NCBI GenBank assembly: GCA_965213625.1
Contig: CBDBZU010000004.1
Location: forward strand, 2,976,001-3,040,000
DNA length: 64,000 nucleotides
Source: a bacterium
Lineage (GTDB): Bacteria > UBA8248
Direction: 5' to 3'
The notes beneath the pieces were generated by a model. That model saw only the letters and a list, made by a program, of their open reading frames with translations, did not search any database and was not told the DNA's origin. This document shows, in pieces, positions 5,416 to 53,914 of the stretch (the first letter of the stretch is position 1; each line of letters starts with the position of its first letter). The translations under genes and the position numbers were made by a program.

Positions 5416-5422
5416 GGTCGGC

Positions 5423-16018: not shown

Positions 16019-16057
16019 AAGACTTCATCGTCTCTTGAGAATTTCATTGGAGAACAC

Positions 16058-16612: not shown

Positions 16613-17559
16613 GCGTGACTGCCTCATCGAATTCCACCAAGAAGAAAAAGGCTTCTGAAGAGGGATTCTCGAACGTCGATGACGTTCAAGAGTCGTTCAG
16701 AAAACTCGATTACATCTCCGACCGTACCCTGGCGACCACCCTCTTCCTGGCCACGAAGCTCGAAAAGCCCCTCTTCCTTGAAGGAGAAGCAGGCGTAGGT
16801 AAAACGGAACTCGCCAAGGTGCTCGCCAGCGCGATGGATACCGAGCTCATCCGCCTGCAATGCTACGAGGGTCTCGACGCGAACTCGGCTCTTTACGAGT
16901 GGAACTATGCGAAACAACTCCTCCACATCAAGATGGAGGAAGGTAAGGATTCGGACGCGAAGTCGATTGAAAAAGACATCTTCAGCGAAGAATACCTGAT
17001 AGAACGGCCGCTTCTTCGCGCGCTTTTGCATTCGAAAGAAAAGCCGGTGGTCCTCCTCATCGACGAAATCGACCGCTCAGACGAGGAGTTCGAAGCATTC
17101 CTGCTGGAAATCCTCTCGGACTACCAGATCACGATTCCCGAGATGGGGACCGTAAAGGCGGCCAGCAAGCCTCTGGTGGTGCTCACCAGCAACCGGACGC
17201 GCGAAATCCACGATGCCCTCAAACGCCGTTGCCTGTATCTGTGGGTCGACTACCCCTCCTTCGAGAAAGAAGTGGAGATCATCACGACGAAGGTGCCTGG
17301 AATCAGCGATCGGCTGGCGGAGCAAATCTCGCGCTTCATGACGCAGGCGAGGCAGATGGATTTCTACAAACGCCCCGGCGTGGCCGAATCCCTCGACTGG
17401 GCGCAGGCGCTCCTCGCTCTGCACCGCAATGAGTTAGACGCCGATGCCGTGCGGGAGACCATCGGCTGCATTCTGAAATATCAGGATGACATCAAGCGGG
17501 TGGAAAGGGATGGTCTCGACAGCATGGTAGCGACTGCGCAACTCGCGCCCGACGCTTAA
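16609..17559 (+). CDS. MoxR-family AAA+ ATPase (CoxD-like)
   Basis: GEAGVGKT, RLQCYEG, LLIDEIDR, LTSNRTRE. Confidence 0.93.
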   Translation: MSVTASSNSTKKKKASEEGFSNVDDVQESFRKLDYISDRTLATTLFLATKLEKPLFLEGEAGVGKTELAKVLASAMDTELIRLQCYEGLDANSALYEWNYAKQLLHIKMEEGKDSDAKSIEKDIFSEEYLIERPLLRALLHSKEKPVVLLIDEIDRSDEEFEAFLLEILSDYQITIPEMGTVKAASKPLVVLTSNRTREIHDALKRRCLYLWVDYPSFEKEVEIITTKVPGISDRLAEQISRFMTQARQMDFYKRPGVAESLDWAQALLALHRNELDADAVRETIGCILKYQDDIKRVERDGLDSMVATAQLAPDA

Positions 17560-17572
17560 TCCGGACTACTTC

Positions 17573-18838
17573 ATGGCAACCTCCATTCGTCCCATCGTGC
17601 AAGGCACTCTGCCCAAGCGCAAAATACGCGTAAAGGGACGGGGTCTGAAAGGCGAGATGATCGGCTTTTGCCGAATCCTCAGGCGCGCGGGCCTCAAGAT
17701 AACCTCCGGCCGCATCATCGACGTGTTCCGCTGCTTTGATTCGCTCGAAGCCACGAATCTCGACAACATCTACGTCGCCAGCAAGTCGAATCTCATCTCC
17801 AGCCAGGATGAGAGCATGATCTTCGACGCCGTATTCCGGCAATACTGGTTCGATGAGGAAGGAAATCCTTACACGGGCGACGAATCGGTGCAGGTCGACA
17901 CGCAATTCGAAGAAGAAGGCGAAGGACAGGCCAGCGAAGGGGGCGGCTCTTCGGAAGAAGGTGAATCGGACGCCGAGGGCGAAGGGCAGGAAAACCCGGG
18001 CCTCCCGTCGGAAGACGACGTGGAAAGCGCCGCCGAACCCGGCGAGCAGGGAGACGACGACGAGGGAATACCCTCATACAGCCCCGCCGAAGTCATTTCG
18101 GACAAAGATTTTTCCGCGCTGAACATGGACCAGGTTGCCGAACTCAGGCGCCTCATTGCGAAACTCGTTCCCAAGCTCGCCACTAAAATCAGCCGCCGCA
18201 AACGCCCAGACATGCGCTCTCCCGAAATCGACATGAGACGAAGCGTGAAGAGAAGCGTTCGCTCGGGCGGCGAGGTGCTGAAACTCTTCCGCCGCAGAAG
18301 AAAGATACAAAAAACCCAGATCGTGCTCATCTGTGACGTATCGGGGTCGATGGACAGCTACAGCCAGTTTTTGATTCAGTTCCTCTACAGTCTGCAAAAC
18401 GAGATCAAGTCGCTGCGCACGTTCGTCTTCAGCACGCGTCTTTCGGACGCCACGCCGTATCTGCGCCACAAGGACGTGAACACTGCTCTCAAGCGACTCT
18501 CCATGGAGGTGCACGACTGGAGCGGCGGCACGCAAATCGGCAACTGTCTCAAGACTTTCAACTATGAATTCGGAAGAACCATCCTGAACAGCCGCACCAT
18601 CGTAATCATCATATCGGACGGCTGGGACCGGGGCGATACGGACACGCTGGCGGAGGAAATGAACCGCCTCAAGAAGATCTGCTACAAACTCTTCTGGCTC
18701 AATCCCTTGCTGGGCAGCCCCGGCTACCGCCCGATCGACAGGGGAATGAGAACGGCCCTTCCCTATTGCGATGAATTCCTGGCGGCCCACAATCTCGATA
18801 GCCTGGTCGACATGACGAACAAGATCGCGCGCATATAA
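17573..18838 (+). CDS. VWA-domain protein (CoxE-like)
   Basis: DVSGSM MIDAS, WSGGTQIG, ISDGWDRG, WLNPL; acidic linker. Confidence 0.92.
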   Translation: MATSIRPIVQGTLPKRKIRVKGRGLKGEMIGFCRILRRAGLKITSGRIIDVFRCFDSLEATNLDNIYVASKSNLISSQDESMIFDAVFRQYWFDEEGNPYTGDESVQVDTQFEEEGEGQASEGGGSSEEGESDAEGEGQENPGLPSEDDVESAAEPGEQGDDDEGIPSYSPAEVISDKDFSALNMDQVAELRRLIAKLVPKLATKISRRKRPDMRSPEIDMRRSVKRSVRSGGEVLKLFRRRRKIQKTQIVLICDVSGSMDSYSQFLIQFLYSLQNEIKSLRTFVFSTRLSDATPYLRHKDVNTALKRLSMEVHDWSGGTQIGNCLKTFNYEFGRTILNSRTIVIIISDGWDRGDTDTLAEEMNRLKKICYKLFWLNPLLGSPGYRPIDRGMRTALPYCDEFLAAHNLDSLVDMTNKIARI

Positions 18839-21095: not shown

Positions 21096-21425
21096 CTAGT
21101 CAGCACAACTCTCGGCCAACCATTCGAGGTAGGACGCACTCCCCTTATTAACCGCAATCGCCAGCATCTCCGGCACATCATAGCTGTGGATTTCCGCCAG
21201 ATGATCGGAGAGGGCCTGCAATTTTTCCTGCGTGGTTTTTATGATGAGCAGGACTTCCGCATCATCCTGAACCGCCCCCTCCCACCGATAGAAGCTGCGG
21301 ATTTTCGGGACCAGATTGACGCAGGCGCACAGCTTCCGCTCGACCAACGATTTCGCAACCCGCACTCCCTCTTCCTCGGAACCCGCTGTGCTCAACACGA
21401 TCCGGAACGCTCGCCCATCTTTCAT
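21096..21425 (-). CDS. cutA: Divalent-cation tolerance protein CutA
   Basis: LCACVN, SFYRWEG, HSYDVPE, YLEWL. Confidence 0.92.
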   Translation of the reverse strand: MKDGRAFRIVLSTAGSEEEGVRVAKSLVERKLCACVNLVPKIRSFYRWEGAVQDDAEVLLIIKTTQEKLQALSDHLAEIHSYDVPEMLAIAVNKGSASYLEWLAESCAD

Positions 21426-21435
21426 GGCTTTCTCC

Positions 21436-22392
21436 TCATGCGCCCAGTATCTTCTCGGCCGCGCTGTAGGGGTCCACTCTTCGCGCGGCGATGGCGTCCA
21501 GAAGATCATCCAGCTCCCGCCCGCCTTTCGCGCCGTCTCCCATGCGCTCCACGGCGAGTTCTTTCATCACTTCCGCGAGTGTGATGCGGGCGCGCTCTCG
21601 CCCGAGACGCCCTGCCTCTTCGGGGTGTTCTTGCAAAAAGGCCATACGCGCCTCGACCTGCGCGGCCAATTCTTCCGTTCCCTCGCCCGTGAGCGCTTCT
21701 GTCTTCAGCACGGGGGGCCTCCAGATACTCGCCTCGCCGGGATGAAACTTGAAATCCAGCATTTCCTCGATTTCCTTCACTGTCCTGTCCGCGCCGTCTC
21801 GCTTTGCCTTATTCACCACGAAAATATCGCCGATCTCCAGTATTCCCGCCTTCGCCGCCTGAATATGGTCCCCGCCGCCGGGCGTCTGGAGCAAAACAAC
21901 CACGTCCGCGCACTGCATGATGTTCACCTCACCCTGCCCCACGCCTACGGTCTCGACGATCACGACGTCCCAGCCCATGGCGTCCATGACGCAGAGCGCA
22001 TCCCCTGTCGCGCGAGCGAGTCCGCCCAGATTGCCGCGTGTCGCCATGCTGCGGATAAAGACTTTCGGGTCCGTACTGTGCCTGCCCATCCGGATGCGAT
22101 CGCCCAGAATGGCGCCGCCCGTGAATGGACTCGTCGGGTCCACCGCGATGACGCACACCCTTTTCTCCTGAGCGCGATAATGGGCGATCAACTGGTCGGA
22201 AAGCGTGCTCTTGCCCGCTCCGGGGGGGCCGGTGATGCCGATGACCAGGCCTTTCCCGCCTTTCAAATACAACTCCTGCAAAATGGGTTTCGCACGCGGG
22301 TCGTTGTCTTCCACCAGCGTGATGAGCTTGGCGGCTGGTCGTACCATCCCGTCCAGTATCTGAGAGATTTGTATTTTACTTCTATCATTCAT
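21436..22392 (-). CDS. meaB: Methylmalonyl-CoA mutase-associated GTPase MeaB/ArgK
   Basis: GITGPPGAGKST, AVDPTSPFTGGAILGDRIRM, ETVGVGQ, NKA. Confidence 0.93.
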   Translation of the reverse strand: MNDRSKIQISQILDGMVRPAAKLITLVEDNDPRAKPILQELYLKGGKGLVIGITGPPGAGKSTLSDQLIAHYRAQEKRVCVIAVDPTSPFTGGAILGDRIRMGRHSTDPKVFIRSMATRGNLGGLARATGDALCVMDAMGWDVVIVETVGVGQGEVNIMQCADVVVLLQTPGGGDHIQAAKAGILEIGDIFVVNKAKRDGADRTVKEIEEMLDFKFHPGEASIWRPPVLKTEALTGEGTEELAAQVEARMAFLQEHPEEAGRLGRERARITLAEVMKELAVERMGDGAKGGRELDDLLDAIAARRVDPYSAAEKILGA

Positions 22393-22450
22393 ATTTATTT
22401 ATCAGTATGTTGTGGGCGTATCATTATGTTGTTTCTAGGGTATTTTGCTT

Positions 22451-23596
22451 TCAGGAATCGAATAGATGCCGGCACACGAGATCACGATGCACCTCGCTCG
22501 TGCCTTCTCCGAGGGTGAACACCCGGGCGTCGCGCCAGAACATCCCCGCAGGCGTTTCTGCGATGTAGCCATACCCGCCATGAATCTGTATCCCTCTATC
22601 GCATACGCGAAGACAGGCCTCCGAGGCGAAAAGTTTCGCCATGGCTACCTCCTCCCTGTTGTCTCCTCCCGCGTCACGGATTCTTGCTGCAGCGACAACC
22701 ATCTCGCGAGAAGTAGCGATATCTATGGCGCTATCGGCCATCATGCCCCGCAGACCGGCAAAATCAGAGACAGGCTTTCCGAATGCTTCGCGCTTCTTGG
22801 CATGGGATGCCGCAGCTTCTAGTGACGCCTGCGCTATACCGACGCACATCGCACCCAGGACGACTCTCCCGTCGTTCAGTACCTGCATCGCCTGTCGCAG
22901 GCCATCCCCTTCTTCTCCGATCAGGCGTTCCGCCGGAATCTCGCAGTTTTCAAAGTAGATTTCCGCCGTGCCTGCTGAGCGCATCCCGAGAGTCTCTGCA
23001 AGTGGGACGCTTCTACACCCCCCATCGCCATTTTCTATCAAAAATGCGCTGATACCGTCTTTTCCCTCGGATGAGCGTGCAAAGATAACCATGCTTTCAA
23101 AATTCATTCCTTGTGTAACGAACATTTTCGCGCCGTTGATGATATAGGCATCCCCATGTCGCCTTGCTTCACACTCGAGAGCCGATGCATGACTGCCCGC
23201 GACACGCTCGGTAATCACCCATGCGCCTATCGCTCCTCTCGTAAGTGGGGGAATCCAACTATTTTTCTGCGCGTCCGATCCATGGTGGAGCAAATGCCCC
23301 CCGCAAAGGCCCGCCGAGACGCTGATAGTGAGCGCGAAACTCGGATCGCCACCGGCCAGTTCCTCCATAATGAGGCATTCGTCAAACAAACCGAGGCCGC
23401 GTCCGACCTGGCTTTCGGGTATTTTAACGCCGATGAATCCCGCTTCGGCCGCCTCTTCGTATAACTCGCAGGAGAAAGTGCCCGCCAGGTCGCGATCCAA
23501 AGCGCCGTGTGCAAGTCGCTTTTGGGCGAATTCCCGGGCCTCTGCCTGGAGGGCCGATTCTTCTTGCGTTATTTCCGTGTGTGTGACGAAAGACAA
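22451..23596 (-). CDS. Acyl-CoA dehydrogenase family protein
   Basis: INGAKMFVT, LGMRSAGT, MAKLFASE, QIHGGYGY, LGEGTSE. Confidence 0.92.
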   Translation of the reverse strand: MSFVTHTEITQEESALQAEAREFAQKRLAHGALDRDLAGTFSCELYEEAAEAGFIGVKIPESQVGRGLGLFDECLIMEELAGGDPSFALTISVSAGLCGGHLLHHGSDAQKNSWIPPLTRGAIGAWVITERVAGSHASALECEARRHGDAYIINGAKMFVTQGMNFESMVIFARSSEGKDGISAFLIENGDGGCRSVPLAETLGMRSAGTAEIYFENCEIPAERLIGEEGDGLRQAMQVLNDGRVVLGAMCVGIAQASLEAAASHAKKREAFGKPVSDFAGLRGMMADSAIDIATSREMVVAAARIRDAGGDNREEVAMAKLFASEACLRVCDRGIQIHGGYGYIAETPAGMFWRDARVFTLGEGTSEVHRDLVCRHLFDS

Positions 23597-24712: not shown

Positions 24713-25594
24713 CTATTTACCCAAGACGACTCCGGCGGCGCCAATGACGGACAAGAGGCCGCCGATGACGACGCGCAAGGTTACCGCTTCCTGTTTTCTG
24801 AAAAACAGCCATGACAGAAAAATGATAAGCAGAACCGAGAGGCGATTGATGGGTATAATTTGAACGATCTCCCCCGTTTTTATGGATGACCAGAAGAAAA
24901 AGGCGGCCACGGCGTTCAGGCAAGCGCCGCCCAAAACGGCCAGGAGTCCTTTTTTGTCCCAGGTTTTGGGCGCTCTCCCCTCTGCGGAAAAAGGCAGGAC
25001 GGCCATCATGAGGCAAAGTGCGGTCGTACTGCCGACGGACATGCCGAAGGAGGCGGATTTGATCACCAACAGCCCGAATTTTCCGAACAGGTGCGTCATC
25101 GCAAACAAAACGGCCGTGCCCAGAGGGAAAAGATAGAAATACAGAGGTATACGCCTTTGAACCTCGCCTTTTTCATAAACCAGCAGAATCGACCCTGCCA
25201 GAATGGCCAAAGTCCCGATTGCAATAAGTCCAGTCATCTGTTCGCCCGCGAAAACCACCGCAAACAAAGAAGCCCATACGAGGCTGGTCTGGGTCACGAT
25301 CGAAGAGCGCGCTAAGCCGACAAGCTTCATACCGATGAGACTCAGATAACGGCCGATGAACGAGCCGGAAACGCCCATAGCGGCGAACCAGACGACTCCC
25401 TCGATCGGCCAAGCCTCCACGCCACCCTCCAGAAAATAAAAAGCGGCTCCGAAAGACATCTGCACGATGGACATGAGAATGTTCATCACAAACGGACTCA
25501 GGCGCGCCACGCCGGCGCGGTATAGAGTGCGTGCGGAGGCGATGAAACAAGCAGCGATAAGAGCCAGAATGTTGGGGTGTATGAAGTCGAGCAA
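24713..25594 (-). CDS. EamA/DMT family transporter
   Basis: About 10 TM helices with two EamA repeats. Confidence 0.85.
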   Translation of the reverse strand: MLDFIHPNILALIAACFIASARTLYRAGVARLSPFVMNILMSIVQMSFGAAFYFLEGGVEAWPIEGVVWFAAMGVSGSFIGRYLSLIGMKLVGLARSSIVTQTSLVWASLFAVVFAGEQMTGLIAIGTLAILAGSILLVYEKGEVQRRIPLYFYLFPLGTAVLFAMTHLFGKFGLLVIKSASFGMSVGSTTALCLMMAVLPFSAEGRAPKTWDKKGLLAVLGGACLNAVAAFFFWSSIKTGEIVQIIPINRLSVLLIIFLSWLFFRKQEAVTLRVVIGGLLSVIGAAGVVLGK

Positions 25595-25597
25595 CGC

Positions 25598-26485
25598 TTA
25601 TCTTCCCGTCACGATGGCGAATGCACCCGCAAGCGCGACCATTGCGCCCAGGACGACGCGCCACGTCACGTTTTCCTGCTTCCGGAACAACAACCATGAG
25701 AGAAATATGATCAATAAAACGGACAGGCGGGTTAAGGGGATGACGCGGGTAATCTCGCCGAGCTTCACCGCGGACCAGAAGAAGAAAATACCGCACCCTT
25801 GCAGCGCGGCTCCCAGGAGAAGTACGAATAACCCTTTGTTGTCGCCACTTGAGCGCGGGTCGCCTTGGCTTTGTGCGAAGGGCGCCAATCCCAGAAGGAG
25901 CGTGAGCGAGGTCGTATTCGCGACCGCCATACCGAAAGCGGATGAGGAAATCCACTCGAACGCGAATTTTCCCACTAGATGCGCGAATGCGTACATCAGC
26001 GCAGACGCAACCGGTATCGCATAGTAATGAAACGGTATCCTGCGACCGGCGTCCCCCTTGGGTTTGTAGACGAGCAGGCTCGCCCCGCACATAACGCCCA
26101 GAATCCCGGTCGCTTTTTGAAGCGACATACTTTCGCCCAATATGAAAACAGCCAGAATCGACGCCCAGATCAGCACGGTCTGGCTCATCACCGCCGCGCG
26201 CGCCAACCCCGTGTAACGAATAGCGACAAAATTAATGTATCTCCCCAAAAAACTCCCGAAAAATCCCATCGCCATGAACCAGAAAACGCCTTGGTAGGGT
26301 ATTTGGTCGAGCGCTCCCTCCATCCAGTAGAAAAACCAACCAAGAGTAGTCGTCACGCATGCCATCACCAGATTTGCCGTATGCATTTTCATGCGCGGAA
26401 TCGCATAGCGCTGCGAAACGCGAGCGAAGGCGATGAGCGCAGCGCAACAGAGCGCTAGAATGTTGGGATGTATGGCATCAAGCAA
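25598..26485 (-). CDS. EamA/DMT family transporter (tandem paralog)
   Basis: Shares MLDxIHPNILAL start and RLSVLLIIFLSWLxFRKQE with its neighbour. Confidence 0.85.
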   Translation of the reverse strand: MLDAIHPNILALCCAALIAFARVSQRYAIPRMKMHTANLVMACVTTTLGWFFYWMEGALDQIPYQGVFWFMAMGFFGSFLGRYINFVAIRYTGLARAAVMSQTVLIWASILAVFILGESMSLQKATGILGVMCGASLLVYKPKGDAGRRIPFHYYAIPVASALMYAFAHLVGKFAFEWISSSAFGMAVANTTSLTLLLGLAPFAQSQGDPRSSGDNKGLFVLLLGAALQGCGIFFFWSAVKLGEITRVIPLTRLSVLLIIFLSWLLFRKQENVTWRVVLGAMVALAGAFAIVTGR

Positions 26486-30473: not shown

Positions 30474-32350
30474 ATGATACACATAGAACTCAAGCAACCA
30501 TACCTTTCAATAAAGAACCTCAACAGCGTCGAATTACCCGATTTTACACTTTTGATCGGCCGAAATGGTGTTGGGAAGACTCAATTACTCGAAGCAATAG
30601 CTGAGGGCCATATTTCTGTCTCGGGCATCTCAAATTCAAGAACTGAAAAATACGATATCGATTCTTTTCGGCCAAGTGATTCTGGGCAAGCAAATTGGGA
30701 GAGTTCTAGTTTTGCTGAAACAGCGGTGGAGAAATATTTCAAAGGTGAATCCGGTTTGGCTGAAACAAGGGTGGAGATATATCTCAAAGGTGAATCCGGT
30801 TTGGCTGCAGCAACAATTTTTCGGAATATTTATCGGAAAACAACTGAGGATTTTGAGCTAGATGATGGCACCGAATATCGCCTCCAATTCGAAGAAGAAG
30901 CAAGGGATACAATTGCCGAAATGTTATCCTCTAGCCAACCAATGCGCACATTGGCTGAATCAACAGATGCGATAAAATATTACTTGGAACAAATCGGAAA
31001 ACTCATCTTTTCATGGCCTCTAGAAGATATAGATGCGGATCTCGCAAATCAGATGTGCCATCTTATCCATTCAGCAATTATATCGAATAGAAAGTTACCG
31101 CATGAAATAACTCGAGGCGATATTCTACGAGCTGCAAATTCTGCAGTAAAAACAATCGGTAATTCGCTGAGTCAAGTTTTCACGAGATATAAAGTCGAAC
31201 AGTTCTCATGGGCACACAAGGAAGCGGAAGCGGGTCCCGAGAATTTTGAACATCTGATGTCGAGTTATCTAGAGACAAATCCCCCGCCATGGATCACGTT
31301 GCACGAAAACCTGGAAAAGATGCGCGAGGCACCGGGATATCCGGATCTTTTTAATTTTGAATTTTCTGACCCGAGAGACGACAAAATCACTTTTGCGAAT
31401 CATCGAGAATACTCATTTGAAACAAAGTTTACCAACAGAGCTACCGGTGAAAGCTATCCAGTCGAAAGCCTTTCATCAGGAGAGAAAATACTGATGTCAT
31501 TATGTTTGGCCTCATTCAATCAAAAGTTGGGTCGCCAACCGCCCAGCCTCATATTACTGGACGAACTCGACTCCGTACTACACCCTTCCATGATTTCTGC
31601 TCTTATAGCTAGCATCAAGACTCTGTTTATCGACAAAGGAACGAAAGTCATCATGGCTACGCATTCTGTAACGACCGCAGCCCTCTTCGATGAAGATAAA
31701 ATTTACCGCATGAGAAGGAACAACAACAAAATTACTATTCGACCTATTACAATATCCGAGGCGGTTTCAGAACTATCAGAGGGTCTGGCGACGATAGATA
31801 CTGGATTGAGGATTGCGGGAGCTGATGCTAAACCAATTACTATACTGACTGAAGGCAAGAACTTGCTACACATGAAAAAGTGGGCAAGCTTATATTATCC
31901 TGAAGAAGTAGATGTATTTGATGCTTTGCCAGAAAAAACAGGCAAGGATCAGCTAAAAACCTACGGTGATCTTCTCTCGAAAGTAAACACGAATTCTCAC
32001 TTTCTTATTGTTTGGGATTGTGATGCAAAAAGTATCGCTAAAAATTGGCGGATGAACTCCCTAAAGCAGCGAATGTAACAGCATTTGCATTCTCAAAGCG
32101 ACAAAATACAATCGCTCCGAAAGGTATTGAGAACAAATACGATGAAAAGGACTTGGAACCGTTTTCAAATCGGACGACGAAGATGTTGACTGGCGAGGTA
32201 CTTCGCATTTCGTTTGACAACGACGAAAAGACTAAATTTGCAGAACATATCTTCGCGAATGGAACAAAAGAAGACTTTCGATATTTTGATGACCTGAATG
32301 CGGTTGTATGTGGAGTTCTGGAACGGCTATCAACACAACAATGCCAATAA
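30474..32350 (+). pseudogene. OLD-family-like ABC ATPase + TOPRIM nuclease, split by a 1-nt frameshift (real or assembly error)
   Basis: GRNGVGKT, LSSGEK, LLDELD, ATHS; TOPRIM ILTEG...WDCD; A5 run 32040-32044 separates it from ORF 32045..32350 carrying GIENKY; AT-rich. Confidence 0.75.
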
Positions 32351-32826: not shown

Positions 32827-33864
32827 CTACATCCACGAGAGCGGCGTGGCGGCGTCTCCCCGGAGTCTTCTGGCGGCGTCTTTGGCGAAGTAGGTGAGGA
32901 TGATGTCCGCCCCCGCGCGCTTGATCGAGATGAGCATTTCCATGAACGCGCGCTCGGGGTCGAGCCACCCGTTGCGGCACGCCGCCGCCAGCATGGCGAA
33001 CTCGCCCGAGACGTTATAAGCGGCGACTGGCAAGTCCATGATACTCCGCGCGCGGGCGATGACGTCGAGATAGACGAGTGCGGGCTTCACCATCACGATG
33101 TCCGCCCCCTCCTCGATATCGAAAGCTATCTCGCGCATGGCCTCGCGCGCATTCGCCGGGTCCATCTGGTAGGAACTCCTGTCGCCGAAGGCGGGGGCGC
33201 TCTCCGCCGCCTCTCGGAAGGGCCCGTAGTAGGCGCTCGAAAATTTCGCCGAATAAGCCATGATGGGCGTCTGGGCGAACCCGCTTTCGTCCAGCGCCAT
33301 GCGAATCGAGCCGACGCGGCCATCCATCATGTCAGACGGCGCGATGATGTCGGCCCCCGCCTCGGCGTGGCTCATCGCCGTCTGGTCGATGAGTTCGAGC
33401 GTGGGGTCGTTCAGTATCTTCTCGCCCTCGATGATGCCGCAGTGGCCGTGGTCCATGTACTCGCAAAGACAAACGTCCGTGATGACGCACAGGTCGGGGT
33501 ATGCCTCCTTGAGTGCGCGCACCGCGTTCTGCACGACGCCGTCTTCCGCATAGGCCCCGCTCGCGATGTCGTCCTTGTGATCCGGAATGCCGAACAGGAT
33601 GACGCCGGGGATGTCGAGAGCGGTAATTTCCTCACAATCGGCCACCAGACGGTCGACGGAGAGTTGGTATTGCCCGGGCATGGAGGAGATTTCCTGCTTT
33701 ACGTTCTCACCCTCGACCACGAACATCGGGTAGATGAGGTTATCCACGGAAAGTCTCGTCTCGCGCACCATGCGCCGCATAGCGGCCGTCTCCCGCGTGC
33801 GCCTCGTGCGATTTTGCACATCCCCTGCAAGAGCCGAAAGAATCAGATTGTCATCAGGCATCAT
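32827..33864 (-). CDS. hemB: Porphobilinogen synthase
   Basis: [14 protein letters not shown] (Zn-type), [19 protein letters not shown]. Confidence 0.97.
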
Positions 33865-34721
33865 GAAATATCACCCTCCATTTTCGGCGTTACGTTCGCC
33901 GTTTCCAGTTCCCGGTAAAAAGAGACGATGGCACTCGCCATGCCGGGAATCGTCGATTCGGCGGCCTCGACGTCCGGTTCGACGCCCCACTTACGCGCCG
34001 TGGCGGTGGTCGCAGGCCCGATAGAGGCCACGCGCGCTTGCGCCACCCATCCTTTCACCCTCTCCTCCCCCGCCGCTCTCATGAAGCCATCGAGCGCCGA
34101 GGAACTCGTGAATGTAAGCATATCAATTTTTCCGTCTTCAAGCTCTCCCCAGACATCGCGAAGCGCTTCGCGTCCCAGAGGCGTCGTCCGGTAGACGGCC
34201 ACGTCATCCAGCAACGCTCCCATTCCCACAAGCGCTTTGGGAATGGCGTCTCTCCCCTCTTTCGCCCGGGCCAGCAAAACACGCGCCCCGGCCAAATCTT
34301 CGTTCTCGAAAAGCGCGACGACGCCCTCGGCCACATATTTGCCGGCCACTTTTTGGGGCGTTCTTCCCAAATGCTTTTCCACCGCTGCGGCCGTGGCGGG
34401 TCCTACAGTCAGAATCGATGTTTCCGCTGGAATCGTATCGGGAGCTACGCCGAGAGCGACAAACCTTTTCGCCAGATATTTCGGCCCGTTCGCGCTCGTG
34501 AAGAGTATCCATTGATATTTGTCCAGCGCGCGAACCGCCGCATCCACTGGCGCCCAGTCTTCAGGCTCCGTGATCCGTATCATGGGCGCGACGCGCACGC
34601 ATGCGCCCAGGTCTGAGAGCATATCGCCCATACGCGATGCCCCCTCCTCTGGGCGCGTGACGAGGATTGTTTTGGCCGCGAGCGGACGCTCGCCCGAGTC
34701 TTCGTTTTCAGCTTGACTCAT
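33861..34721 (-). CDS. hemD: Uroporphyrinogen-III synthase
   Basis: ILVTRP, FTSANG, VYRT, FTSSS, SIGPAT; position in hem operon. Confidence 0.92.
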
Positions 34722-35638
34722 CGCGCGTCTCTCAATATTTCCGCCCCGCCATGTGCGAGAACGTCCTCGGCCACCTCATCGGCCATTCTCGTAGCGTCAT
34801 CGGGTGTCCCCGTTCGTTCTCGCTCCACCATCCGCTTCCCGTCGACACTCGCTAAACGGGCTTTAATGATAAACCCGCTTTTTCGAATCTCAGCGAAAAT
34901 GCCCAATGGCAATAGACACCCACCCTCCAAGCGCGCCATTACGACGCGCTCTGCCATCACGGCGCGTTTCGTCTCCTGGTGATTCAAGCCTTCCATCAGG
35001 CGGCGCGTGCCCGCATCATTCTCCCTCGTCTCGATGGCGAGCGCGCCCTGGCCCGCGGCCGGCAGCATGAGTTCGGGCGCGAGTGACTCGGTCGCTCGCT
35101 CCTCCATCCCCAGACGCTTCAGGCCCGCCAGGGCGAGAATTGCGCCTTCCACCTCCCCCGCCGCCACTTTTTCGAGGCGCGTATCCACGTTTCCGCGCAA
35201 CTCCACAATTTCCAGATCGCGCCGGTAGCGCCTGATCTGCGCGATTCGCCTTAAACTGCTCGTGCCGATTCTGCTGCCGGGCGCGAGTCCGCGGATCGAT
35301 TCCCCGCCCCGTGAGACAAGAGCGTCCCAGGGTTCTTCTCTTTCCGGAATCGAGGCGAGGATGAGGCCTTCGGGCAGTTCACTCGGCAGGTCTTTCAGGC
35401 TATGGACGGCGGCATCGATTTTACCTTGTAGAAGAGCGTCTTCGATTTCCTTTACGAAAAGACCCTTGCCCCCCAGTTCATGAATGGGGGAGCCGAGCAT
35501 GGCGTCCCCCCGCGTGCGGACGATAATTTCCTCCACGGCAAGTCCCGGATTCAGTTCCTTCAACTGTGCGGCCACCAGAGCCGTCTGCGCGCGCGCCAGC
35601 GCGCTGCCCCGCGTGCCGAGGCGTAGCGTGTCATTCAT
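34718..35638 (-). CDS. hemC: Hydroxymethylbilane synthase
   Basis: GTRGSALA, GKGLFVKE, VHSLKD, GTSSLRR, RGNVDTRL, LEGGC. Confidence 0.97.
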   Translation of the reverse strand: MNDTLRLGTRGSALARAQTALVAAQLKELNPGLAVEEIIVRTRGDAMLGSPIHELGGKGLFVKEIEDALLQGKIDAAVHSLKDLPSELPEGLILASIPEREEPWDALVSRGGESIRGLAPGSRIGTSSLRRIAQIRRYRRDLEIVELRGNVDTRLEKVAAGEVEGAILALAGLKRLGMEERATESLAPELMLPAAGQGALAIETRENDAGTRRLMEGLNHQETKRAVMAERVVMARLEGGCLLPLGIFAEIRKSGFIIKARLASVDGKRMVERERTGTPDDATRMADEVAEDVLAHGGAEILRDAR

Positions 35639-35641
35639 GTA

Positions 35642-36949
35642 TCAGTCCGATTCATCCGGTGGCTCGGGCGGTCTTTCATCGCTTTCGGGTTCCACACCGA
35701 AGAGTTTCTGGACGGATTCGACGGAAATGCCCTCCACGTCTTCTTCCGCCATCTGGCGCAGGACGGCGAAGGGATGGTGGAGCAGCTTGTTGACCAGCGC
35801 CTTCGTCATGGCGTCAAGGGCATCGCGACCGTCTTCTCCCAGCTCGGGAAGACGCGGGATGGTTTTTTCGATTTCCGACTGGCGCATCGATTCGGCGAAG
35901 AAGCGAATGGCCGCAAAGGTATGCCTGAGTTCCTCTGCCTTCTGGCGTGCAAGGTAGGTCTCCACCTCGCTATCCAGGATCGCGCGCGCGTCGCGGGCCA
36001 CCTCTTCGCGGTCACGCAGGTTGTCCGCCGCGACGGACTGTAGATCGTCCACGTCATAGAGATAGGCGTCTTCGAGATCGTTCACGTCTGGCGCAACGTT
36101 TCTCGGCACGGCGATGTCGATGAGGAATACCGGCGCGTCGCGGCGGCGTTCCAATGCAGCGGCCACGGTCGGTTTGTCGAGGACAAACTCCTTCGCGGCC
36201 GTAGATGCGATGACGACGTCGGCTTCGATGAGCGCCCCTTCCAGATTATCGAAACCTACAGCGCTTCCCCCGAGCCTGGAAGCCAACTCTTGCGCACGCG
36301 CGAACGTCCTGTTCGCCACGCGGAGGGTGTCGGCCCCGCTCGCTTTGAGATGCCTTGCTGCCGCTTCGCCCATTTCGCCCGCGCCTAGCAGGAGCACGTT
36401 CTTGCTTTCGAGTGAGCCGAATATTCTTTTCGCCAGATCCACGGCGACCGAACTTACCGACACAGGCGACTCGCCAATCGGCGTTTGCTCGCGGATTTTC
36501 TTCGCCACGCGAAACGCGCGGGAGAAGAGGTTCGTGAGGGCCTTTCCGGCGTGGCCCGAGGCCTGGGCGACCCGGTAGGCTTCTTTCACCTGCCCCAAAA
36601 TCTGCGGTTCGCCCACCACCATGGAATCGAGGCTCGCCGCCACGGTGAACAGATGCCGGGTGGCTTCGGCCTCGCGGTGAACGTAAAGATGAGCATTCAA
36701 CTCCTCTACGCCGATGTCGCGCGATTCGAGGAAAAAACGATGGATCGCGTCGAGACCCTGCTCGTAATCCTCCGCCGCGCTGTAGACTTCCACCCGGTTG
36801 CACGTCGAGAGGATGAGCCGCTCCTCCAGCCCGTGGTAGCCCGCCAGACGGTCGAGCCACTCGTCCATATTGCTTTCGGGGAAATAGAGGCGCTCACGAA
36901 CGCTGAGCGGCGTATTGTGGTGGCTCACGCCGGCGAGAATGATGGACAT
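35642..36949 (-). CDS. hemA: Glutamyl-tRNA reductase
   Basis: STCNRVE, SLDSMVVGEPQILGQ, GAGEMG, DIAVPR. Confidence 0.97.
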   Translation of the reverse strand: MSIILAGVSHHNTPLSVRERLYFPESNMDEWLDRLAGYHGLEERLILSTCNRVEVYSAAEDYEQGLDAIHRFFLESRDIGVEELNAHLYVHREAEATRHLFTVAASLDSMVVGEPQILGQVKEAYRVAQASGHAGKALTNLFSRAFRVAKKIREQTPIGESPVSVSSVAVDLAKRIFGSLESKNVLLLGAGEMGEAAARHLKASGADTLRVANRTFARAQELASRLGGSAVGFDNLEGALIEADVVIASTAAKEFVLDKPTVAAALERRRDAPVFLIDIAVPRNVAPDVNDLEDAYLYDVDDLQSVAADNLRDREEVARDARAILDSEVETYLARQKAEELRHTFAAIRFFAESMRQSEIEKTIPRLPELGEDGRDALDAMTKALVNKLLHHPFAVLRQMAEEDVEGISVESVQKLFGVEPESDERPPEPPDESD

Positions 36950-47641: not shown

Positions 47642-48508
47642 TCAGGACGCGCCTAACGCCTTCAGAATAGTTCTGCGGATCAGGACGGGCGCAACCTGAC
47701 GTCTGTAGTCGGCGCTCGCGCGGATGTCGGTCAAGGGATCGAGGTCATCGAGCGCGCCTGCGAGTACGGCGTCGATATTCTCCTGGTTGAGCTCCTTGCC
47801 CTGGAGGCCTTCTTCCACCGCCGTGAGGCGCCTGAACACGGCTTCCACGCCGCCCAGGCCGATTCTCACCTCTTTGGCCGTGTTGCCGTCTTCTTCGGTG
47901 AGAACAGCCGTGGAAATGGAGACGCACGGCTTATCCTCTTTGGAACGCGTTGTGAAGCGCGTGCACGCCGTCCGGAAACCATCGAGCAGCGGGTCGACCT
48001 CAATCGAGCACAGCAACTCATCCTCATCCAGTGCGCACTCGTAATATCCCGTCCAGAACTCCGTCGCCGGAATCACGCGTTCCGTTCCGTTCGCCTTCCT
48101 GGTGTTCATGCGGGCCTCAAGAGCCAGGAAAGCGCCCGGCGGGTCCGAGGCCGGTTCCGCAAAACACAGGTTGCCGCCTATCGTACCCTGGTTACGGATG
48201 CGTATGGTCGCCACGTTGTGAAAAATTTCCCCGAGAAGCGGGAAGCGCTCCTGGACCAGAGGAGAAGTCTCTATTTTGCGGTGCACCGTCTTCGCCCCGA
48301 TGCGGACCCCGCCGTTTTCGGTCTCCTCGATGAAATCCAGATCGCCCGCGCCCGCAATGTCGATTAACACGTCTGGTTCGTACACACCCGATTTCATGAG
48401 AATCGAGAGGGCGACGCCGCCGGCGAACACTTTCCCGTCCTCGCCATGCTCCTTCATGGCGGCGAGCGTTTCCTCCGCGCTGTTCGCGGGTAAATGCCGA
48501 AAAGCCAT
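47642..48508 (-). CDS. Molybdenum hydroxylase FAD-binding subunit
   Basis: FAGG, IRNQGTIGGN, TDIRASADYR. Confidence 0.92.
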   Translation of the reverse strand: MAFRHLPANSAEETLAAMKEHGEDGKVFAGGVALSILMKSGVYEPDVLIDIAGAGDLDFIEETENGGVRIGAKTVHRKIETSPLVQERFPLLGEIFHNVATIRIRNQGTIGGNLCFAEPASDPPGAFLALEARMNTRKANGTERVIPATEFWTGYYECALDEDELLCSIEVDPLLDGFRTACTRFTTRSKEDKPCVSISTAVLTEEDGNTAKEVRIGLGGVEAVFRRLTAVEEGLQGKELNQENIDAVLAGALDDLDPLTDIRASADYRRQVAPVLIRRTILKALGAS

Positions 48509-48527
48509 TTTTTCTCCCCTCTCCTCG

Positions 48528-50813
48528 TTAGTCGCCGTTTTTCTCGTTCAACGCGGCCAGCACCTTCTCCGGCGTAATCGGCAGCGACGTGATACGCACG
48601 CCCACGGCGTTATAAATTGCGTTGCCAATCGCAGCCGAGGTCCCCAACTGCGCCATCTCGCCCAATCCTTTCGCTCCATAGGGCCCCGTGGGGTTTTCCG
48701 TCTCGATGAGAACGGATTCGAGTTCGGGCAAATCCTGGGTGGTGGGCAACTTGTAATCGAGCCAGTTCGCGTTCACCGGTTGGCCGTCTTCGACCTCGAA
48801 ATCTTCCATCATGGCGTAGCCCACGCCCATGAGCGCACCGCCGTCCAATTGTCCCTGCGCGCCAGCCGGGTTCACTATGGTTCCGCAGTCGTTCGTGCTG
48901 ATCACGCGCAACACTTCGAACGCGCCGGTCTCTGTGTCGACTTCCACCTCCGCCACCTTAGCGCCGTAGGCGTAGGCGGCTGACCAGTTCCCATAACCCG
49001 TCACGGGGTCCGGCGTCTCGCTAGGCGAGTCATAAGAAGATGCCGTGTAGACGGCCTCGCTGCCCTCTTTTTCGTATAATTTCATATAGGCTTCGCTGTG
49101 AGTCACCTGCCTCTCGGGAGAACTGGTGACGAATATTTTGCCTTCGCGCGCGTCTAGGTCGTTCGGGTCGCACTCGAGCAGTTCCGCCGCTCCCTTGAAG
49201 AGCATGTTCTTCGCCTGAACAGACGCCAGGCGCGTAGCTTCGCCGTCGATGGTGGTCGTGCGGCTTCCGCGAACGCCCCACCCGTAGGGGTTCACCGCTG
49301 TATCGCCGTTGATGATCCGCACGTCCTCCACGCGTATGCCTATCGCATCGGCGCAAATCTGCGCGAGCGTGGTGTCCGAGCCGTTACCCATTTCGATCGT
49401 GCCCGAGAGCAACTGCACCGTGCCGTCCTTGTTCATCTTGATGAACGCGCCCGCCGTCTCCGGCCCCATCGCGCGCGCGCCTGTGAAGTGGACCGCCGCG
49501 GCCAACCCGAAGCCGCGCTTTTTGCCGTTGCTGCTCGGCTGCTCCTCCCGCCAGGGCACGCGTTTGACCGCCTCCTGCACGCATTCGGAAACACCGCAAC
49601 TCGTAATTTTCGCGCCGATGATTGTAGTGTCGCCCTTTCTCACGAAGTTCCTGATGCGAAACTCCGCCGGGTCCATTCCGATTTCCTCGGCGTGCTTCTC
49701 CATCGCAAGTTCCGAGCCGAATGAATAGCCGCCGTTGCCTATTCCGCGCATCGCGCCGCCGGGCGGTACGTTCGTACAGACGACGTCGGCGTGGTGGCGA
49801 TAGGCCTTGTAGTTGTAGATGCTCCCGCCCATGTGCGCCGTGATGCCGCCGACCGCCGGGCTGTAATCCGAATAACCACCGTTTTCCACCACCATCTTGG
49901 TGTCGCGCGCGAGCAGCATACCGTTTTTGTCGGTGGCAATGCGCCAGACGTGGAACTGCTTCGTCCGGTGCGTGCCGAGGAGAAACTCCTCTTCTCGCGT
50001 GTAGTAGAATTTTACGGGGAGGTCCAGTTTTTTCGCCGCGATGATGGAGAGGAAATCGATGTTGAACTTGCTCGTCGCCTTTCCGCCGAAACCCCCGCCC
50101 ACGTAATTCGTGACAACACGAATCTGGGCTTCGGGAATCTTGAGCAGTTTGGCGAAATACTGGCTCGAAAGACTCGGGCATTGCGAGGAGTTGTAGACGG
50201 TTACGTCGCCCTTCTGCGACCACTCGGCGATAGAGACGTGCGCCTCCAGGGAGCCGTGCATCTGGCGCGAGGACGAGGTGGCCAGTTCACTCACGTGATG
50301 GGCTTCGTCGAACATGCGGTCCACGTCGCCGAATTCCATGTGCTTGGTGAAGGCGATGTTGTCCGGGTACCTGTCGTGGATGACGGGGGCGCCCTCTTGC
50401 ATCGCCTCGTGCGGGTCGAAGACGGCCGGAAGCTCCTCGTAGTCCACGTCTATCAAATCAAGCGCTTCTACCGCGATATCTTCAGATGTCGCGATGACGG
50501 CGGCCACCGAATCGCCCACGTGACGCACCTTGTCAGAGGCGAGGGGACGCTGATCGTAGCAAACGGGCACGACGCCCCATTCCACTTCCTCGGGGATGTC
50601 CCCGGACGTCAATATGAGCTTGACGCCGGGGAGCTTCTCGGCGCGGCTGGTGTCGATGTTCTTGATTCGCGCGTGCGGCAGGGGACTTCCCAGCAGCCTT
50701 CCGTGAAGCATTTTGGGCAACTGAAGGTCGAGGGTAAACATGGCCCGGCCCGTCACCTTTTCCGGCCCATCGACGCGAGGCACGCTTTTTCCGACGTATG
50801 AGAGTTCAGCCAT
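48528..50813 (-). CDS. Xanthine-dehydrogenase-family molybdopterin-binding subunit
   Basis: RVDGPEKVTG, VGGGFGGK, GAMRGIG, GSRTT, GQLDGG, GAKGLGE. Confidence 0.93.
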   Translation of the reverse strand: MAELSYVGKSVPRVDGPEKVTGRAMFTLDLQLPKMLHGRLLGSPLPHARIKNIDTSRAEKLPGVKLILTSGDIPEEVEWGVVPVCYDQRPLASDKVRHVGDSVAAVIATSEDIAVEALDLIDVDYEELPAVFDPHEAMQEGAPVIHDRYPDNIAFTKHMEFGDVDRMFDEAHHVSELATSSSRQMHGSLEAHVSIAEWSQKGDVTVYNSSQCPSLSSQYFAKLLKIPEAQIRVVTNYVGGGFGGKATSKFNIDFLSIIAAKKLDLPVKFYYTREEEFLLGTHRTKQFHVWRIATDKNGMLLARDTKMVVENGGYSDYSPAVGGITAHMGGSIYNYKAYRHHADVVCTNVPPGGAMRGIGNGGYSFGSELAMEKHAEEIGMDPAEFRIRNFVRKGDTTIIGAKITSCGVSECVQEAVKRVPWREEQPSSNGKKRGFGLAAAVHFTGARAMGPETAGAFIKMNKDGTVQLLSGTIEMGNGSDTTLAQICADAIGIRVEDVRIINGDTAVNPYGWGVRGSRTTTIDGEATRLASVQAKNMLFKGAAELLECDPNDLDAREGKIFVTSSPERQVTHSEAYMKLYEKEGSEAVYTASSYDSPSETPDPVTGYGNWSAAYAYGAKVAEVEVDTETGAFEVLRVISTNDCGTIVNPAGAQGQLDGGALMGVGYAMMEDFEVEDGQPVNANWLDYKLPTTQDLPELESVLIETENPTGPYGAKGLGEMAQLGTSAAIGNAIYNAVGVRITSLPITPEKVLAALNEKNGD

Positions 50814-51159
50814 CACAACCTCCACTCGTTCGCGGCATAAAAGCGCATACCGCAGGGCGATTTATATTCTTAATCCTTAACATGAAAATTGGATAGGTAT
50901 ACTGCTTCGAGCACATCGCAATCCCTTCGGGACCCGATAGAATGCGATGGTGTTTCGCTTGCATTCGATGAAGCTATCATAACAACTCAATGAGCAAAAT
51001 AAAACCCCAAAAATCGGCGTATGAGAACCCCTTTCGGCATTTCAGGAAATGGCAGCCTTCCACTTTCTCCTCTACGTTTTGTGGTGTATCATCCGCCGTT
51101 ACGAGAAGCTCAAGACGGACATTCCGTTCATCACAAAACACCAGAACTGGAGTAGCGCA

Positions 51160-51906
51160 ATGCCCATTCGTTTTGATTTTCAGGGCCGCAAGGTCATCCT
51201 CACGGGCGCGGCGGGCGCGATGGGAAGCCGTATTCTGCAAGGATACATCGAGGCCGGCGCCAGGGTTTTCGCCACCGACAGGGAAGGCGAGGCCTTTGAC
51301 GCGATCGATGGCCCATCCGATCAACTCTTCAAGCTGCCCTGCGATCTGGCCGACGTGGACGCAATCCGCACCACCATGCGCTCTGCGCTCGAATGGCTGG
51401 GCGGCTGCGACGTGCTGGCGAACGTGGCCGGCTACATGCCGATTCGCCCGCCTCTCGAACTCGAAGAAGAAGACTGGAACGTCGTACTGAACGTGAACCT
51501 GCTGGCTCCCTACTTCTGCATCCAGGAAACCATCGAGGCGCTCAAGGCCTCGGGCACGGGGCGCATCATCAGCTTCGCGTCCATCGCGGGTAAAATGGGG
51601 GGTATCGGCCCCAACCTCACCTATTCCGCCGCCAAGGCGGGCCTGCTCGCCATGACGTTCAACCTGGCGCGTGAACTCGCCAAGACGGGCGTGACGATCA
51701 ACACCATACAGCCGGGACCCGCCGATACGGGCCTTCACTTCCAGTCCCCGCCAGATATGCTCGTGAACGCCGCAAACGCCCATCCCATGGGCAGGCTCAC
51801 GACTCCTGAGGACGTGTGGCACACCGTCTTGTTCCTCTCGAGCGAGGAGGCTGCCCACATCAACGGCGAGGCGGTGGACGTGAACGGCGGCTTCTGGACG
51901 GATTAG
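51160..51906 (+). CDS. SDR family oxidoreductase
   Basis: TGAAGAMG, NVAG, YSAAK, VNGG; GGAG upstream of ATG 51160. Confidence 0.92.
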   Translation: MPIRFDFQGRKVILTGAAGAMGSRILQGYIEAGARVFATDREGEAFDAIDGPSDQLFKLPCDLADVDAIRTTMRSALEWLGGCDVLANVAGYMPIRPPLELEEEDWNVVLNVNLLAPYFCIQETIEALKASGTGRIISFASIAGKMGGIGPNLTYSAAKAGLLAMTFNLARELAKTGVTINTIQPGPADTGLHFQSPPDMLVNAANAHPMGRLTTPEDVWHTVLFLSSEEAAHINGEAVDVNGGFWTD

Positions 51907-51922
51907 CCCGAAGGAGAACACC

Positions 51923-52759
51923 ATGTCGAGCGACAACCCGAAAGGCTATGCGAACCCCGACCTGCTCTGGTCGGTCGAACAACTCAATGTGCGCATGGAC
52001 GACCCTGGCTTAAGAATCATCGACACGCGCCCCGGCGAGCGCTACACAATGGGCCACATTCCCGGCGCGCGGCATTTCGACGTCTACGGCGTGAACAGCG
52101 ATGACTCCGACGAGGCGCCGCTCAGGAATTTTTTCTCCATGTGGGCGTTCTTGCTGGGAAACCGGGGGGTATCCTTCGAGAACACCATCATCTTCTACGA
52201 CGATTTCGTCGGCAACACGAGCGTGCGCGGCTTCTGGATGCTGGAGCTTTTCGGCCACAAGGACGTCCACGTGCTGGACGGCGGCTACGGCGCATGGGAG
52301 CGGGCGGGCTATGAGACGACGCGCGACGCCGAGGTGCCCAAAGCCGCTTCTTTCCAGATGGCGTTCGAGCCGCACCGCCTCGCCACGCGCGAGGACGTAC
52401 TGACGGCCATCGAGGATGACAACCACATGCTCCTCGACACGCGCTCGATTGAGGAGTGGGAGGGACGGGGCAAGAGGGCCAAACGGGACGGAATCATCCC
52501 CGGAGCGGTCTGGCAGGAATGGCTCCAGCACCTGACGCCCGAGGGCGAGATGAAGCCCGCGGATGAGCTTCGCGCGCAGTTCGAGGCCATCGGAATCACT
52601 CCCGAGAAAGAAGTGACCGCCTACTGACAGACGGGCTACCGTGCGGCGCACGGTTATTTCGCTCTCCGTCTTCTGGATTATCCAAAGGTGAGAAACTACA
52701 TGAGCTCCTGGAAAGAATGGGGGAACCGGGAGGATACGCCCATCGTGCAGGCGCAATAG
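51923..52759 (+). CDS. Tandem-rhodanese sulfurtransferase (SseA/CysA-like), probable selenoprotein
   Basis: GHIPGA, LDGG, DTRS, IPGA; EVTAY-TGA(52625-52627)-QTGYRAAH...[10 protein letters not shown] to TAG 52759. Confidence 0.9.
52638..52654 (+). promoter_or_regulatory. Putative bacterial SECIS element
   Basis: ACCGTGC-GGC-GCACGGT perfect 7-bp hairpin after a 10-nt spacer from the in-frame TGA. Confidence 0.75.
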
Positions 52760-52898
52760 CGCAGACGCAGCGGTAAATTGAAGGCGCTTGCCTCTATCAT
52801 TCTAATAGTCGATACAGGTTCACGAAATAAACTATCACGGCCACGACATCTTCTGGATGGGGCCATTATCTATCATCATGGACTCTTGGAGGTTTACC

Positions 52899-53914
52899 AT
52901 GAAGAGTAATTTCGTTCGTAATATCCTTGCCGTTGCGCTCGTTTATGCGCTCTCGCCGGCGGGACTCGCCTCGGCTGCGCCCACGCTCAAGCTCGGCGCT
53001 GCCAGCAACACCGGCGGCATGATTGTCTTTGTCGGTGTCGACAAGGGTTTCTTTGCCAAAAACGGGCTGGACGGGAAAGTCGTCGTACGCAACACGGGCG
53101 CCCAGCTCACCAAATCGCTCAAGGCCGGGCAGATCGACTTCGCTCCCGCCGCTTTCACCAACCTGCCGGCGGCTCTGGAGCGCGGCATCAAGGTGCGCGG
53201 CGTAGTAGGCTATGTTGGCGGCTCGTACACGAAATCCACCACGGATGAGATGGTGGGCATCGCCGTGCGCCCCGGAACGGGCGTAAAGAGCATCAAGGAC
53301 TTGAAAGGCAAGAAAATCGGGGCCACCTTCGGCTCCACCGGCGACCTCTACCTCCGCACCCTGCTGGAGAGAAACGGCATCGGCGTGGGCGGCGTGCGCC
53401 GCATCAACGTGCGTCCGCCGAGTCTCGTCTCGCTGTTCGATTCGGGGGCGTGGACGCCATGGTCGCGTGGGAGCCCTACCTCACACGCATGACCGACAAG
53501 GTGAAAGGCTCCTCCATCGTGTCGCGCGGCGGCGACTACGTGTGCTTCTGCGCGGGTATGCACGGCGTGCCGGATCGCGTCTACAAAGACAAAAAGGCGA
53601 CCCAGGCGTTCGTGAACGGCATGTCCGAGGCGGCCGCTTATGTGCGCGACCCCAAGAACATAGACGAGATCTCGAAAATCGGCGCGCGCTACGTCCGCGG
53701 CATGGACGCCGCCCTCATCAAGCGCACCATCAAGTGGTGGACGTATGACACGCGTCTGGGCGAGAACACGCTCAAGGCCTTCAACTTCTCGGTGAAGCAG
53801 CTTATCGCCCAGAAGAAGATGAAGCGCCCCTACGACCCCAAGAAATACTTCGACTTCCAGTTCATCAACCGGACCATGAAGGAACATCCCGAGTGGTTCA
53901 AGGATCTCAAATAG
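52899..53914 (+). pseudogene. NitT/TauT ABC substrate-binding protein split by a 1-nt frameshift (possibly assembly error)
   Basis: Signal peptide from ATG 52899; adding one G to the G5 run 53444-53448 gives ...DSGGVDAMVAWEPY. Confidence 0.8.

Follow-up and report, generated by a model that had tools for sequence, protein, structure and literature searches.

The window, a term used here for the whole 64,000-nucleotide (64-kb) stretch of bacterial DNA that was analyzed, contains a gene for a rhodanese-type sulfurtransferase that is interrupted toward its 3′ end by an in-frame TGA. The open reading frame (ORF) 51923-52627 runs from ATG 51923 to TGA 52625-52627 and consists of 234 sense codons. 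Past this triplet, the same frame is open for another 43 codons, to TAG 52757-52759. A first-pass annotation of this DNA had reported the stop, the 43-codon continuation, and a read-through product of 278 residues, and all three are confirmed on the sequence. The features discussed below are as follows:

51923..52759, forward strand: coding sequence of the predicted selenocysteine (Sec)-rhodanese, 278 codons plus TAG, with two rhodanese domains
51910..51916, forward strand: Shine-Dalgarno-like GAAGGAG, 6 nt 5′ of ATG 51923, by direct reading
52625..52627, forward strand: in-frame TGA, codon 235, at the catalytic position of a U-Q-T-G-Y-R loop, here read as Sec
52638..52654, forward strand: putative SECIS core hairpin, with a 7-bp stem, a GGC apical loop, and a free energy of -9.7 kcal/mol
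52633-52636 with 52661-52664, forward strand: possible 4-bp lower stem around the core hairpin, from the RNAalifold consensus, weakly supported
51049..51906, forward strand: short-chain dehydrogenase/reductase (SDR) gene, with its stop 16 nt 5′ of the rhodanese start
11843-12499, reverse strand: DsbA-like gene (Pfam DSBA, E 2.4e-23) with an in-frame TGA at 12454-12452

The 278-residue read-through translation contains no cysteine, so a product stopping at residue 234 would have no catalytic nucleophile; it would also be devoid of the active-site loop. Public protein sets nevertheless annotate the rhodanese as a 234-aa protein, which is regarded here as a mis-annotation.

Identification of the read-through protein as a two-domain rhodanese, as originally proposed, is borne out by several kinds of evidence. 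Pfam PF00581 matches it in two stretches (E 1.5e-32), and an AlphaFold model, for which 23 sequences were used, reaches a mean pLDDT of 89.9. The closest solved structures are the Thermus thermophilus rhodanese 1UAR (E 4.4e-41) and the Azotobacter vinelandii rhodanese RhdA, 1E0C (E 2e-40), with Foldseek TM scores of 0.86 over the whole length and 0.84, respectively. The Foldseek matches are tandem rhodaneses, and Pfam and Foldseek both place two rhodanese domains in one chain. In the model, a strand (residues 230-234) leads into a loop with residue 235, followed by a helix (239-250). In alignments, the residue encoded by the TGA falls on the Cys of two known motifs, the H-C-Q-T-H-H-R-S loop in Azotobacter RhdA and Y-C-Q-T-G-Y-R-S in 279-aa Cys-type homologues, in agreement with the earlier claim that the TGA lies at the catalytic Cys. 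Judging by the model and the alignment, the nucleophile of this otherwise Cys-free protein would be located on the strand-helix loop of the C-terminal domain, with Sec replacing Cys, and the N-terminal domain would be inactive. The UxxG motif is present in this PF00581 protein in the form U-Q-T-G.

Two more specific family assignments were rejected. The best NCBIfam match is NF008557 (SseA), which covers residues 20-277 with 138.9 bits against a cut-off of 250, and the protein is thereby ruled out as a 3-mercaptopyruvate sulfurtransferase SseA equivalog. The match to NF041203 (rhodanese_LYCAU, "form 3", CxU) reaches 30.1 bits against a cut-off of 115 and lies outside the active site. Its CxU motif is contradicted by the Y-U-Q-T-G of a protein that has no Cys.

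Relatives of the protein fall into short and long versions. Among the 120 matches listed in the protein search, 25 are exactly 234 aa long, with 84% query coverage and 70-93% identity, in line with the suggestion that standard pipelines would call the gene truncated. Many other listed relatives are ~279 aa long and 52-72% identical. In the alignment, the 234-aa relatives all end in ...TAY, and the long relatives continue past the same point with Y-C-Q-T-G-Y-R-S-A-H-A-Y...G-S-W-x-E-W-G-N.

The basis for this division is apparent in the DNA of 80 relatives' loci (L001-L080) from species-representative genomes. A TGA occupies the aligned codon in 28 of 28 loci that are 73-95% identical to the gene (L001-L028; labeled Nitrospinota, Tectomicrobia, or just "bacterium"), giving 29 of 29 Sec rows with the window included. 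By comparison, the same codon is TGC or TGT in 21 of 21 loci from Pseudomonadota, Acidobacteriota, and others (L030-L050). These counts leave out L029, which ends before the site, and L051-L080, with 27-41% identity. Loss of the TGA and hairpin from close relatives had been named as an outcome that would count against a selenoprotein. The opposite was seen, with the TGA retained in 28/28 and the full hairpin in 25/28. The conservation also bears on whether a TGC or TGT was mistaken for TGA during sequencing or assembly. The next gene of the window does have at least one probable indel error or frameshift, but all 28 of the independent assemblies, which come from different records, show the same TGA, and an error at this codon is exceedingly improbable.

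In all 28 TGA loci, down to 73% identity, the frame past the TGA is open for 43-53 codons. In eight of the 28 relatives (L015-L018, L021, L023, L025, and L026), a second TGA ends the same gene, and the first TGA must therefore be decoded differently from the second. A single mRNA from any of these eight loci would carry a Sec-UGA and a stop-UGA ~45-53 codons apart.

For the 29 Sec-type genes (the window plus L001-L028), selection on the region was gauged by the Nei-Gojobori method from comparisons between pairs, with the following results:

codons 1-232 (upstream): pN/pS 0.24, pS 0.45
codons 236-244 (spacer and hairpin): pN/pS 0 (pN = 0), pS 0.048
codons 245-276 (tail): pN/pS 0.21, pS 0.53

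Since the tail value resembles that of the upstream codons, the tail evolves as protein, i.e., under purifying selection, and the frame that continues past the UGA is both open in 28/28 relatives and conserved as protein. It carries a conserved helix and the SWxEWGN signature common to the Cys forms. These observations weigh on the possibility that the TGA is a true stop, such that the gene encodes a truncated 234-aa rhodanese or is a pseudogene, with the open frame as a decaying remnant. That view would accommodate the 234-aa public gene calls, the use of TGA as an ordinary stop in this genome, and the lack of any Sec machinery seen within the 64-kb window. A remnant would drift, however, whereas the 43-53-codon tail is open in every one of 28 genomes with a pN/pS of 0.21 at a pS of 0.53 and retains the helix and signature of the Cys forms; moreover, the 234-aa product would be left with neither Cys nor catalytic loop. 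Termination at this TGA is accordingly considered very unlikely.

The codons directly following the TGA behave differently from the rest of the gene. Third-position identity is 0.963 over codons 236-244 versus 0.666 elsewhere in the gene, and the ten least synonymously diverse 10-codon windows, of 216, start at codons 229-238. None of 100000 permutations reached the observed synonymous constraint. A constraint at the RNA level thus overlies the coding sequence at codons 236-244.

The constrained codons contain the hairpin, which is present as previously described: its arms, ACCGTGC (52638-52644) and GCACGGT (52648-52654), pair perfectly around a GGC loop (52645-52647) after a 10-nt spacer (52628-52637), and the TGA-to-loop spacing is 17 nt. 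According to the Fig. 2 legend of PMC13188914, the bacterial SECIS (bSECIS) model calls for a loop of 3-9 nt with a G within its first two bases, a stem of 4-16 bp, a distance of 16-37 nt from the UGA, and a minimum free energy (MFE) of -7.5 or lower. With its GGC loop, 7 bp, 17-nt spacing, and -9.7 kcal/mol, the rhodanese hairpin lies within every one of these published limits, in keeping with the earlier proposal of a SECIS just downstream of the UGA with a G in the apical loop. In 26 of 29 Sec rows, the window included, the hairpin has the same free energy of -9.7 kcal/mol. The three weakened rows are L016 and L017, with a C.A mismatch (-5.8 kcal/mol), and L018, in which the closing pair is lost (-9.1 kcal/mol).

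In the Cys forms, the corresponding 17 nt are without the hairpin in 21 of 21 cases (mean -1.5, best -4.7 kcal/mol). This difference has a counterpart in the protein, as the Y-R-S-A-H-A of most Cys forms is Y-R-A-A-H-G in the Sec forms. The hairpin arms exist only because of the change from YRSAHA to YRAAHG, in which the Ser-to-Ala and Ala-to-Gly codons supply paired bases.

Folding statistics for the element are mixed. None of 11 predicted pairs in the RNAalifold consensus shows compensatory changes, and this absence of covariation reflects the fact that the hairpin is almost invariant. Free folding of the 45 nt that follow the codon favors an alternative structure, one without the hairpin, in 12 of 29 rows. 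A 72-nt fold of the window sequence has a z-score of -1.78, and eight of 200 shuffles fold as well. As to chance occurrence, of the 1893 TGA triplets that the window contains on its two strands in any frame, 14 (~0.7%) are followed by a perfect hairpin of at least 7 bp in bSECIS geometry, and two of the 14 are the rhodanese hairpin itself. At such a rate, the hairpin alone is only moderately unusual; it is conservation in relatives that places the feature far beyond chance. For the possible lower stem, two of the four pairs are invariant (19/19 rows), and the other two change from GC to GU in two and six of 19 rows and are broken in two and one of 19, respectively, with no compensatory changes among the 19 rows. 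A search of Rfam with positions 52500-52800 at E values up to 10 returned no relevant match, the one miRNA-family match having an E of 10.

Evidence on Sec decoding in this organism comes from the window and from print. Among the 70 ORFs of the 64-kb window, NCBIfam models detected no selA, selB, or selD, and ARAGORN and Rfam (gathering thresholds) found no tRNA-Sec (selC) in the same window, only tRNA-Gly. TGA ends 16 of the 40 window ORFs that have a family match. It is therefore an ordinary stop, meaning that Sec decoding would be local to the site and that the genetic code is not reassigned. Entries in BSepDB are species scored as having a Sec pathway (PMC13326102). One of them, FO_M_Nitrospinota_01 of GTDB phylum UBA8248, is among the top ten bacteria by number of selenoprotein genes, with 54 (PMC13326102), and is the metagenome-assembled genome (MAG) that gave locus L021. 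The supplement text of BSepDB, in the portion available, mentions no rhodanese, sulfurtransferase, or UBA8248.

The window also has a second candidate selenoprotein gene, whose DsbA-like product is of the thioredoxin fold. Its in-frame TGA replaces the first Cys of a YSDFL-C-PWC motif, producing a UxxC arrangement. In distant DsbA-like homologues, Y-S-D-F-L-C-P-W-C or a close variant is found in 6/6 aligned. The 44 closer relatives (50-92% identical) are all gene calls covering 89% of the query or less, and the six of these that were aligned all start after the TGA point. The stem-loop downstream of this TGA is weak (MFE -7.5; 196 of 200 shuffles fold as well), and on RNA grounds the gene is a candidate only. 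Together, the use of TGA as an ordinary stop, the DsbA-like TGA, and the presence of the L021 MAG in BSepDB lend indirect support to Sec decoding.

A six-frame motif screen of the window yielded only the rhodanese and DsbA-like in-frame TGAs as credible. Other in-frame TGA candidates, at 24717-26231 (reverse) and 21292-22716 (forward) and upstream of an ArsM-like ORF, were rejected, as each has a translation that appears non-coding and matches no family. The ORF in the last case, 4651-5574 (reverse), encodes a SAM methyltransferase that resembles arsenite methyltransferases. NCBIfam ArsM-fusion selenoprotein models also match its methyltransferase domain, all far below cut-off, and no credible in-frame TGA was found upstream of it.

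Stem-loops downstream of stop codons can favor read-through in other systems, which raises the possibility that the UGA is read as Cys, Trp, or Gly through a near-cognate tRNA, a suppressor, or a reassigned code, and that the hairpin only stimulates read-through. The case for Sec is one built on sequence, and no Sec machinery was seen within the 64-kb window, both of which leave room for such decoding. Against it, TGA terminates 16 of 40 family-matched ORFs, which speaks against a reassigned code, and the hairpin geometry fits the SelB-type model. In addition, both of the homology-supported in-frame TGAs replace a redox or catalytic Cys in families with known Sec forms, and a related MAG is in print with a Sec pathway and 54 selenoprotein genes (PMC13326102). 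On balance, insertion of an amino acid other than Sec is improbable.

Sec insertion best explains what was observed: the gene anatomy, the homology, a TGA and a hairpin that are both conserved, and a tail under selection. Positions 51923-52759 are highly likely to encode a sulfurtransferase of the rhodanese type, 278 residues long and with tandem domains, in which Sec, encoded by UGA 52625-52627, serves as the catalytic nucleophile. In the proposed mechanism, the hairpin, with its 7-bp stem and GGC loop and starting 11 nt after the UGA, would act as a bacterial SECIS. SelB carrying Sec-tRNASec would bind it, so that Sec is inserted and termination does not occur. Translation would then run through the last 43 codons, and the helix and strand encoded there would complete the catalytic domain. 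The resulting protein would contain selenium, placed there in a SelB-dependent manner. By analogy with RhdA-type thiosulfate sulfurtransferases, the Sec selenolate may take a sulfane sulfur from a donor; an enzyme-bound Se-S intermediate would replace the usual Cys persulfide, and the sulfur would be passed to an acceptor, as with the Cys enzymes, the substrates likewise being presumed.

The Sec forms appear to share a common origin. In a quick maximum-likelihood tree of 49 rows with a midpoint root, a single branch with an SH-aLRT of 99 separates the 29 Sec forms from the other rows. The tree does not include L029, which is partial, L043, whose C-terminus is broken, or the distant L051-L080. 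This topology is consistent with a single Cys-to-Sec change, which may have taken place in an ancestor of the Nitrospinota/Tectomicrobia-labeled lineage.

Gene neighborhoods, compared by tblastn over L001-L050, also differ between the two forms. All 29 Sec-type loci (L001-L029) have the SDR gene directly upstream of the rhodanese and in the same orientation, versus one of 21 Cys-type loci (L032). In the window, NCBIfam FabG-like matches to the SDR are all below cut-off and start near residue 44; the true start of this gene is probably downstream of 51049. A divergently oriented gene for the large subunit of a xanthine-dehydrogenase-family Mo-hydroxylase is found in 24/29 Sec-type loci (absent from L019-L022 and L028). 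The ABC-transporter ATPase and permease genes that lie downstream occur in 14/29 and were not seen in the other 15, some of which are on contigs that end too early to tell.

The window itself has xanthine-dehydrogenase-family genes for an FAD and a large subunit at 47642-50825 (reverse), divergent from the SDR/Sec-rhodanese pair. On the 3′ side of the rhodanese is an SsuA/TauA-like substrate-binding gene (52857-53914, forward) that is split into ORFs 52857-53492 and 53450-53914, the equivalent being one ORF of 338-380 aa in seven relatives checked. The split is a frameshift, due to either an assembly indel or a pseudogene. A second set of xanthine-dehydrogenase-family Mo-hydroxylase subunit genes at 15152-16612 (forward) precedes genes for a MadB-like AAA ATPase and a MadC-like VWA protein (16609-18838). 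Elsewhere in the window are a heme-precursor operon, hemA, hemC, hemD, and hemB (32827-36949, reverse; glutamyl-tRNA reductase to porphobilinogen synthase), and an adjacent gene pair resembling a HepT/MntA-type nucleotidyltransferase toxin-antitoxin system (1777-2546, reverse), in which the HI0074-family substrate-binding subunit scores above cut-off and the MntA-like match is weak. There is also a 534-aa AAA-type ATPase (30474-32078, forward) with weak matches to the anti-phage effector ATPases PtuA and MAD3, all far below cut-off.

The constant association with the SDR gene invites the speculation, which is more doubtful than not by a wide measure, that Sec-rhodanese and SDR form a dedicated module delivering S or Se to a specific target via a Se-S (or Se-Se) intermediate. 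Were this so, a candidate target would be the terminal sulfido or selenido ligand of the neighboring Mo cofactor, and an alternative would be a small-molecule C-S or C-Se bond, in EanB-like fashion. In that event, the role of the enzyme would go beyond general sulfur transfer from thiosulfate, and selection would have favored the switch to Sec jointly with the SDR partnership in a very selenoprotein-rich lineage.

With respect to its broader meaning, the Sec-rhodanese is very probably an already catalogued sort of hidden selenoprotein that involves no new mechanism, in a lineage already reported to be selenoprotein-rich. Its immediate value lies in annotation, as this gene and at least 25 relative clusters are listed publicly as 234-aa "sulfurtransferases" without a catalytic residue. 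The DsbA-like genes of the neighboring lineage are likewise cut, in their case at the other end. As a consequence of such truncated annotations, metabolic reconstructions of the Nitrospinota/Tectomicrobia-labeled bacteria miss or misread these enzymes. The family would also provide a natural example of a Cys-to-Sec switch that occurred once, of a SECIS that forces two amino-acid replacements beside an active site, and of a sulfurtransferase with a selenolate in place of a thiolate.

Several known systems are available for comparison. The E. coli fdhF-type SECIS is, like the rhodanese hairpin, a stem-loop located in the coding region after the UGA with a G opening a small apical loop. It differs in that the present loop has three bases (GGC) on a perfect 7-bp stem with no bulged U, and the fdhF SECIS has no sequence similarity to the rhodanese hairpin, the putative SelB-binding element. 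Among sulfurtransferases, E. coli SseA (NF008557, PDB 1URH) has the same tandem rhodanese fold. The active-site loop of 3-mercaptopyruvate sulfurtransferases (MSTs) is of the C-G-S-G-V-T type, unlike the U-Q-T-G-Y-R loop found here. RhdA (1E0C) and 1UAR are homologous over the whole length and share the fold, and their C-Q-T-x-x-R loop aligns with U-Q-T-G-Y-R. They differ in having Cys rather than Sec and are ~30-32% identical to the present protein; in vitro, they are known or assumed to act on thiosulfate and cyanide.

COG2897 is the group of tandem-domain sulfurtransferases. Under the name "Rhodanese-related sulfurtransferase", it was described in 2005 as a new selenoprotein family with three sequences from Sargasso Sea data, which are given in Table 1 of that report along with a predicted SECIS in Fig. 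3 (PMC1088965). Global Ocean Sampling (GOS) data subsequently provided eight Sec-rhodanese sequences under cd01449 and one under COG2897 (PMC2398784, Table 2), and a 2026 review distinguishes five rhodanese selenoprotein forms, of which forms 2 and 4 have UxxG (PMC13188914). The first-pass statement that Sec-rhodaneses are known from genome surveys is therefore supported by the listings in these three sources. Their available passages mention neither the SDR partner nor the YRSAHA-to-YRAAHG change, nor any biochemical characterization of a Sec sulfurtransferase (PMC1088965, PMC2398784, PMC13188914). Forms 2 and 4 are likened to the present protein by the description of the UxxG motif, not by sequence. 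As described in those passages, the COG2897/UxxG Sec-rhodaneses are of the same architecture class as the present protein and likewise have the UxxG motif, with Sec at the position of the catalytic Cys and, immediately after it, a SECIS within the coding region. Unlike the members in those published accounts, the present ones are from the Nitrospinota/Tectomicrobia-labeled lineage.
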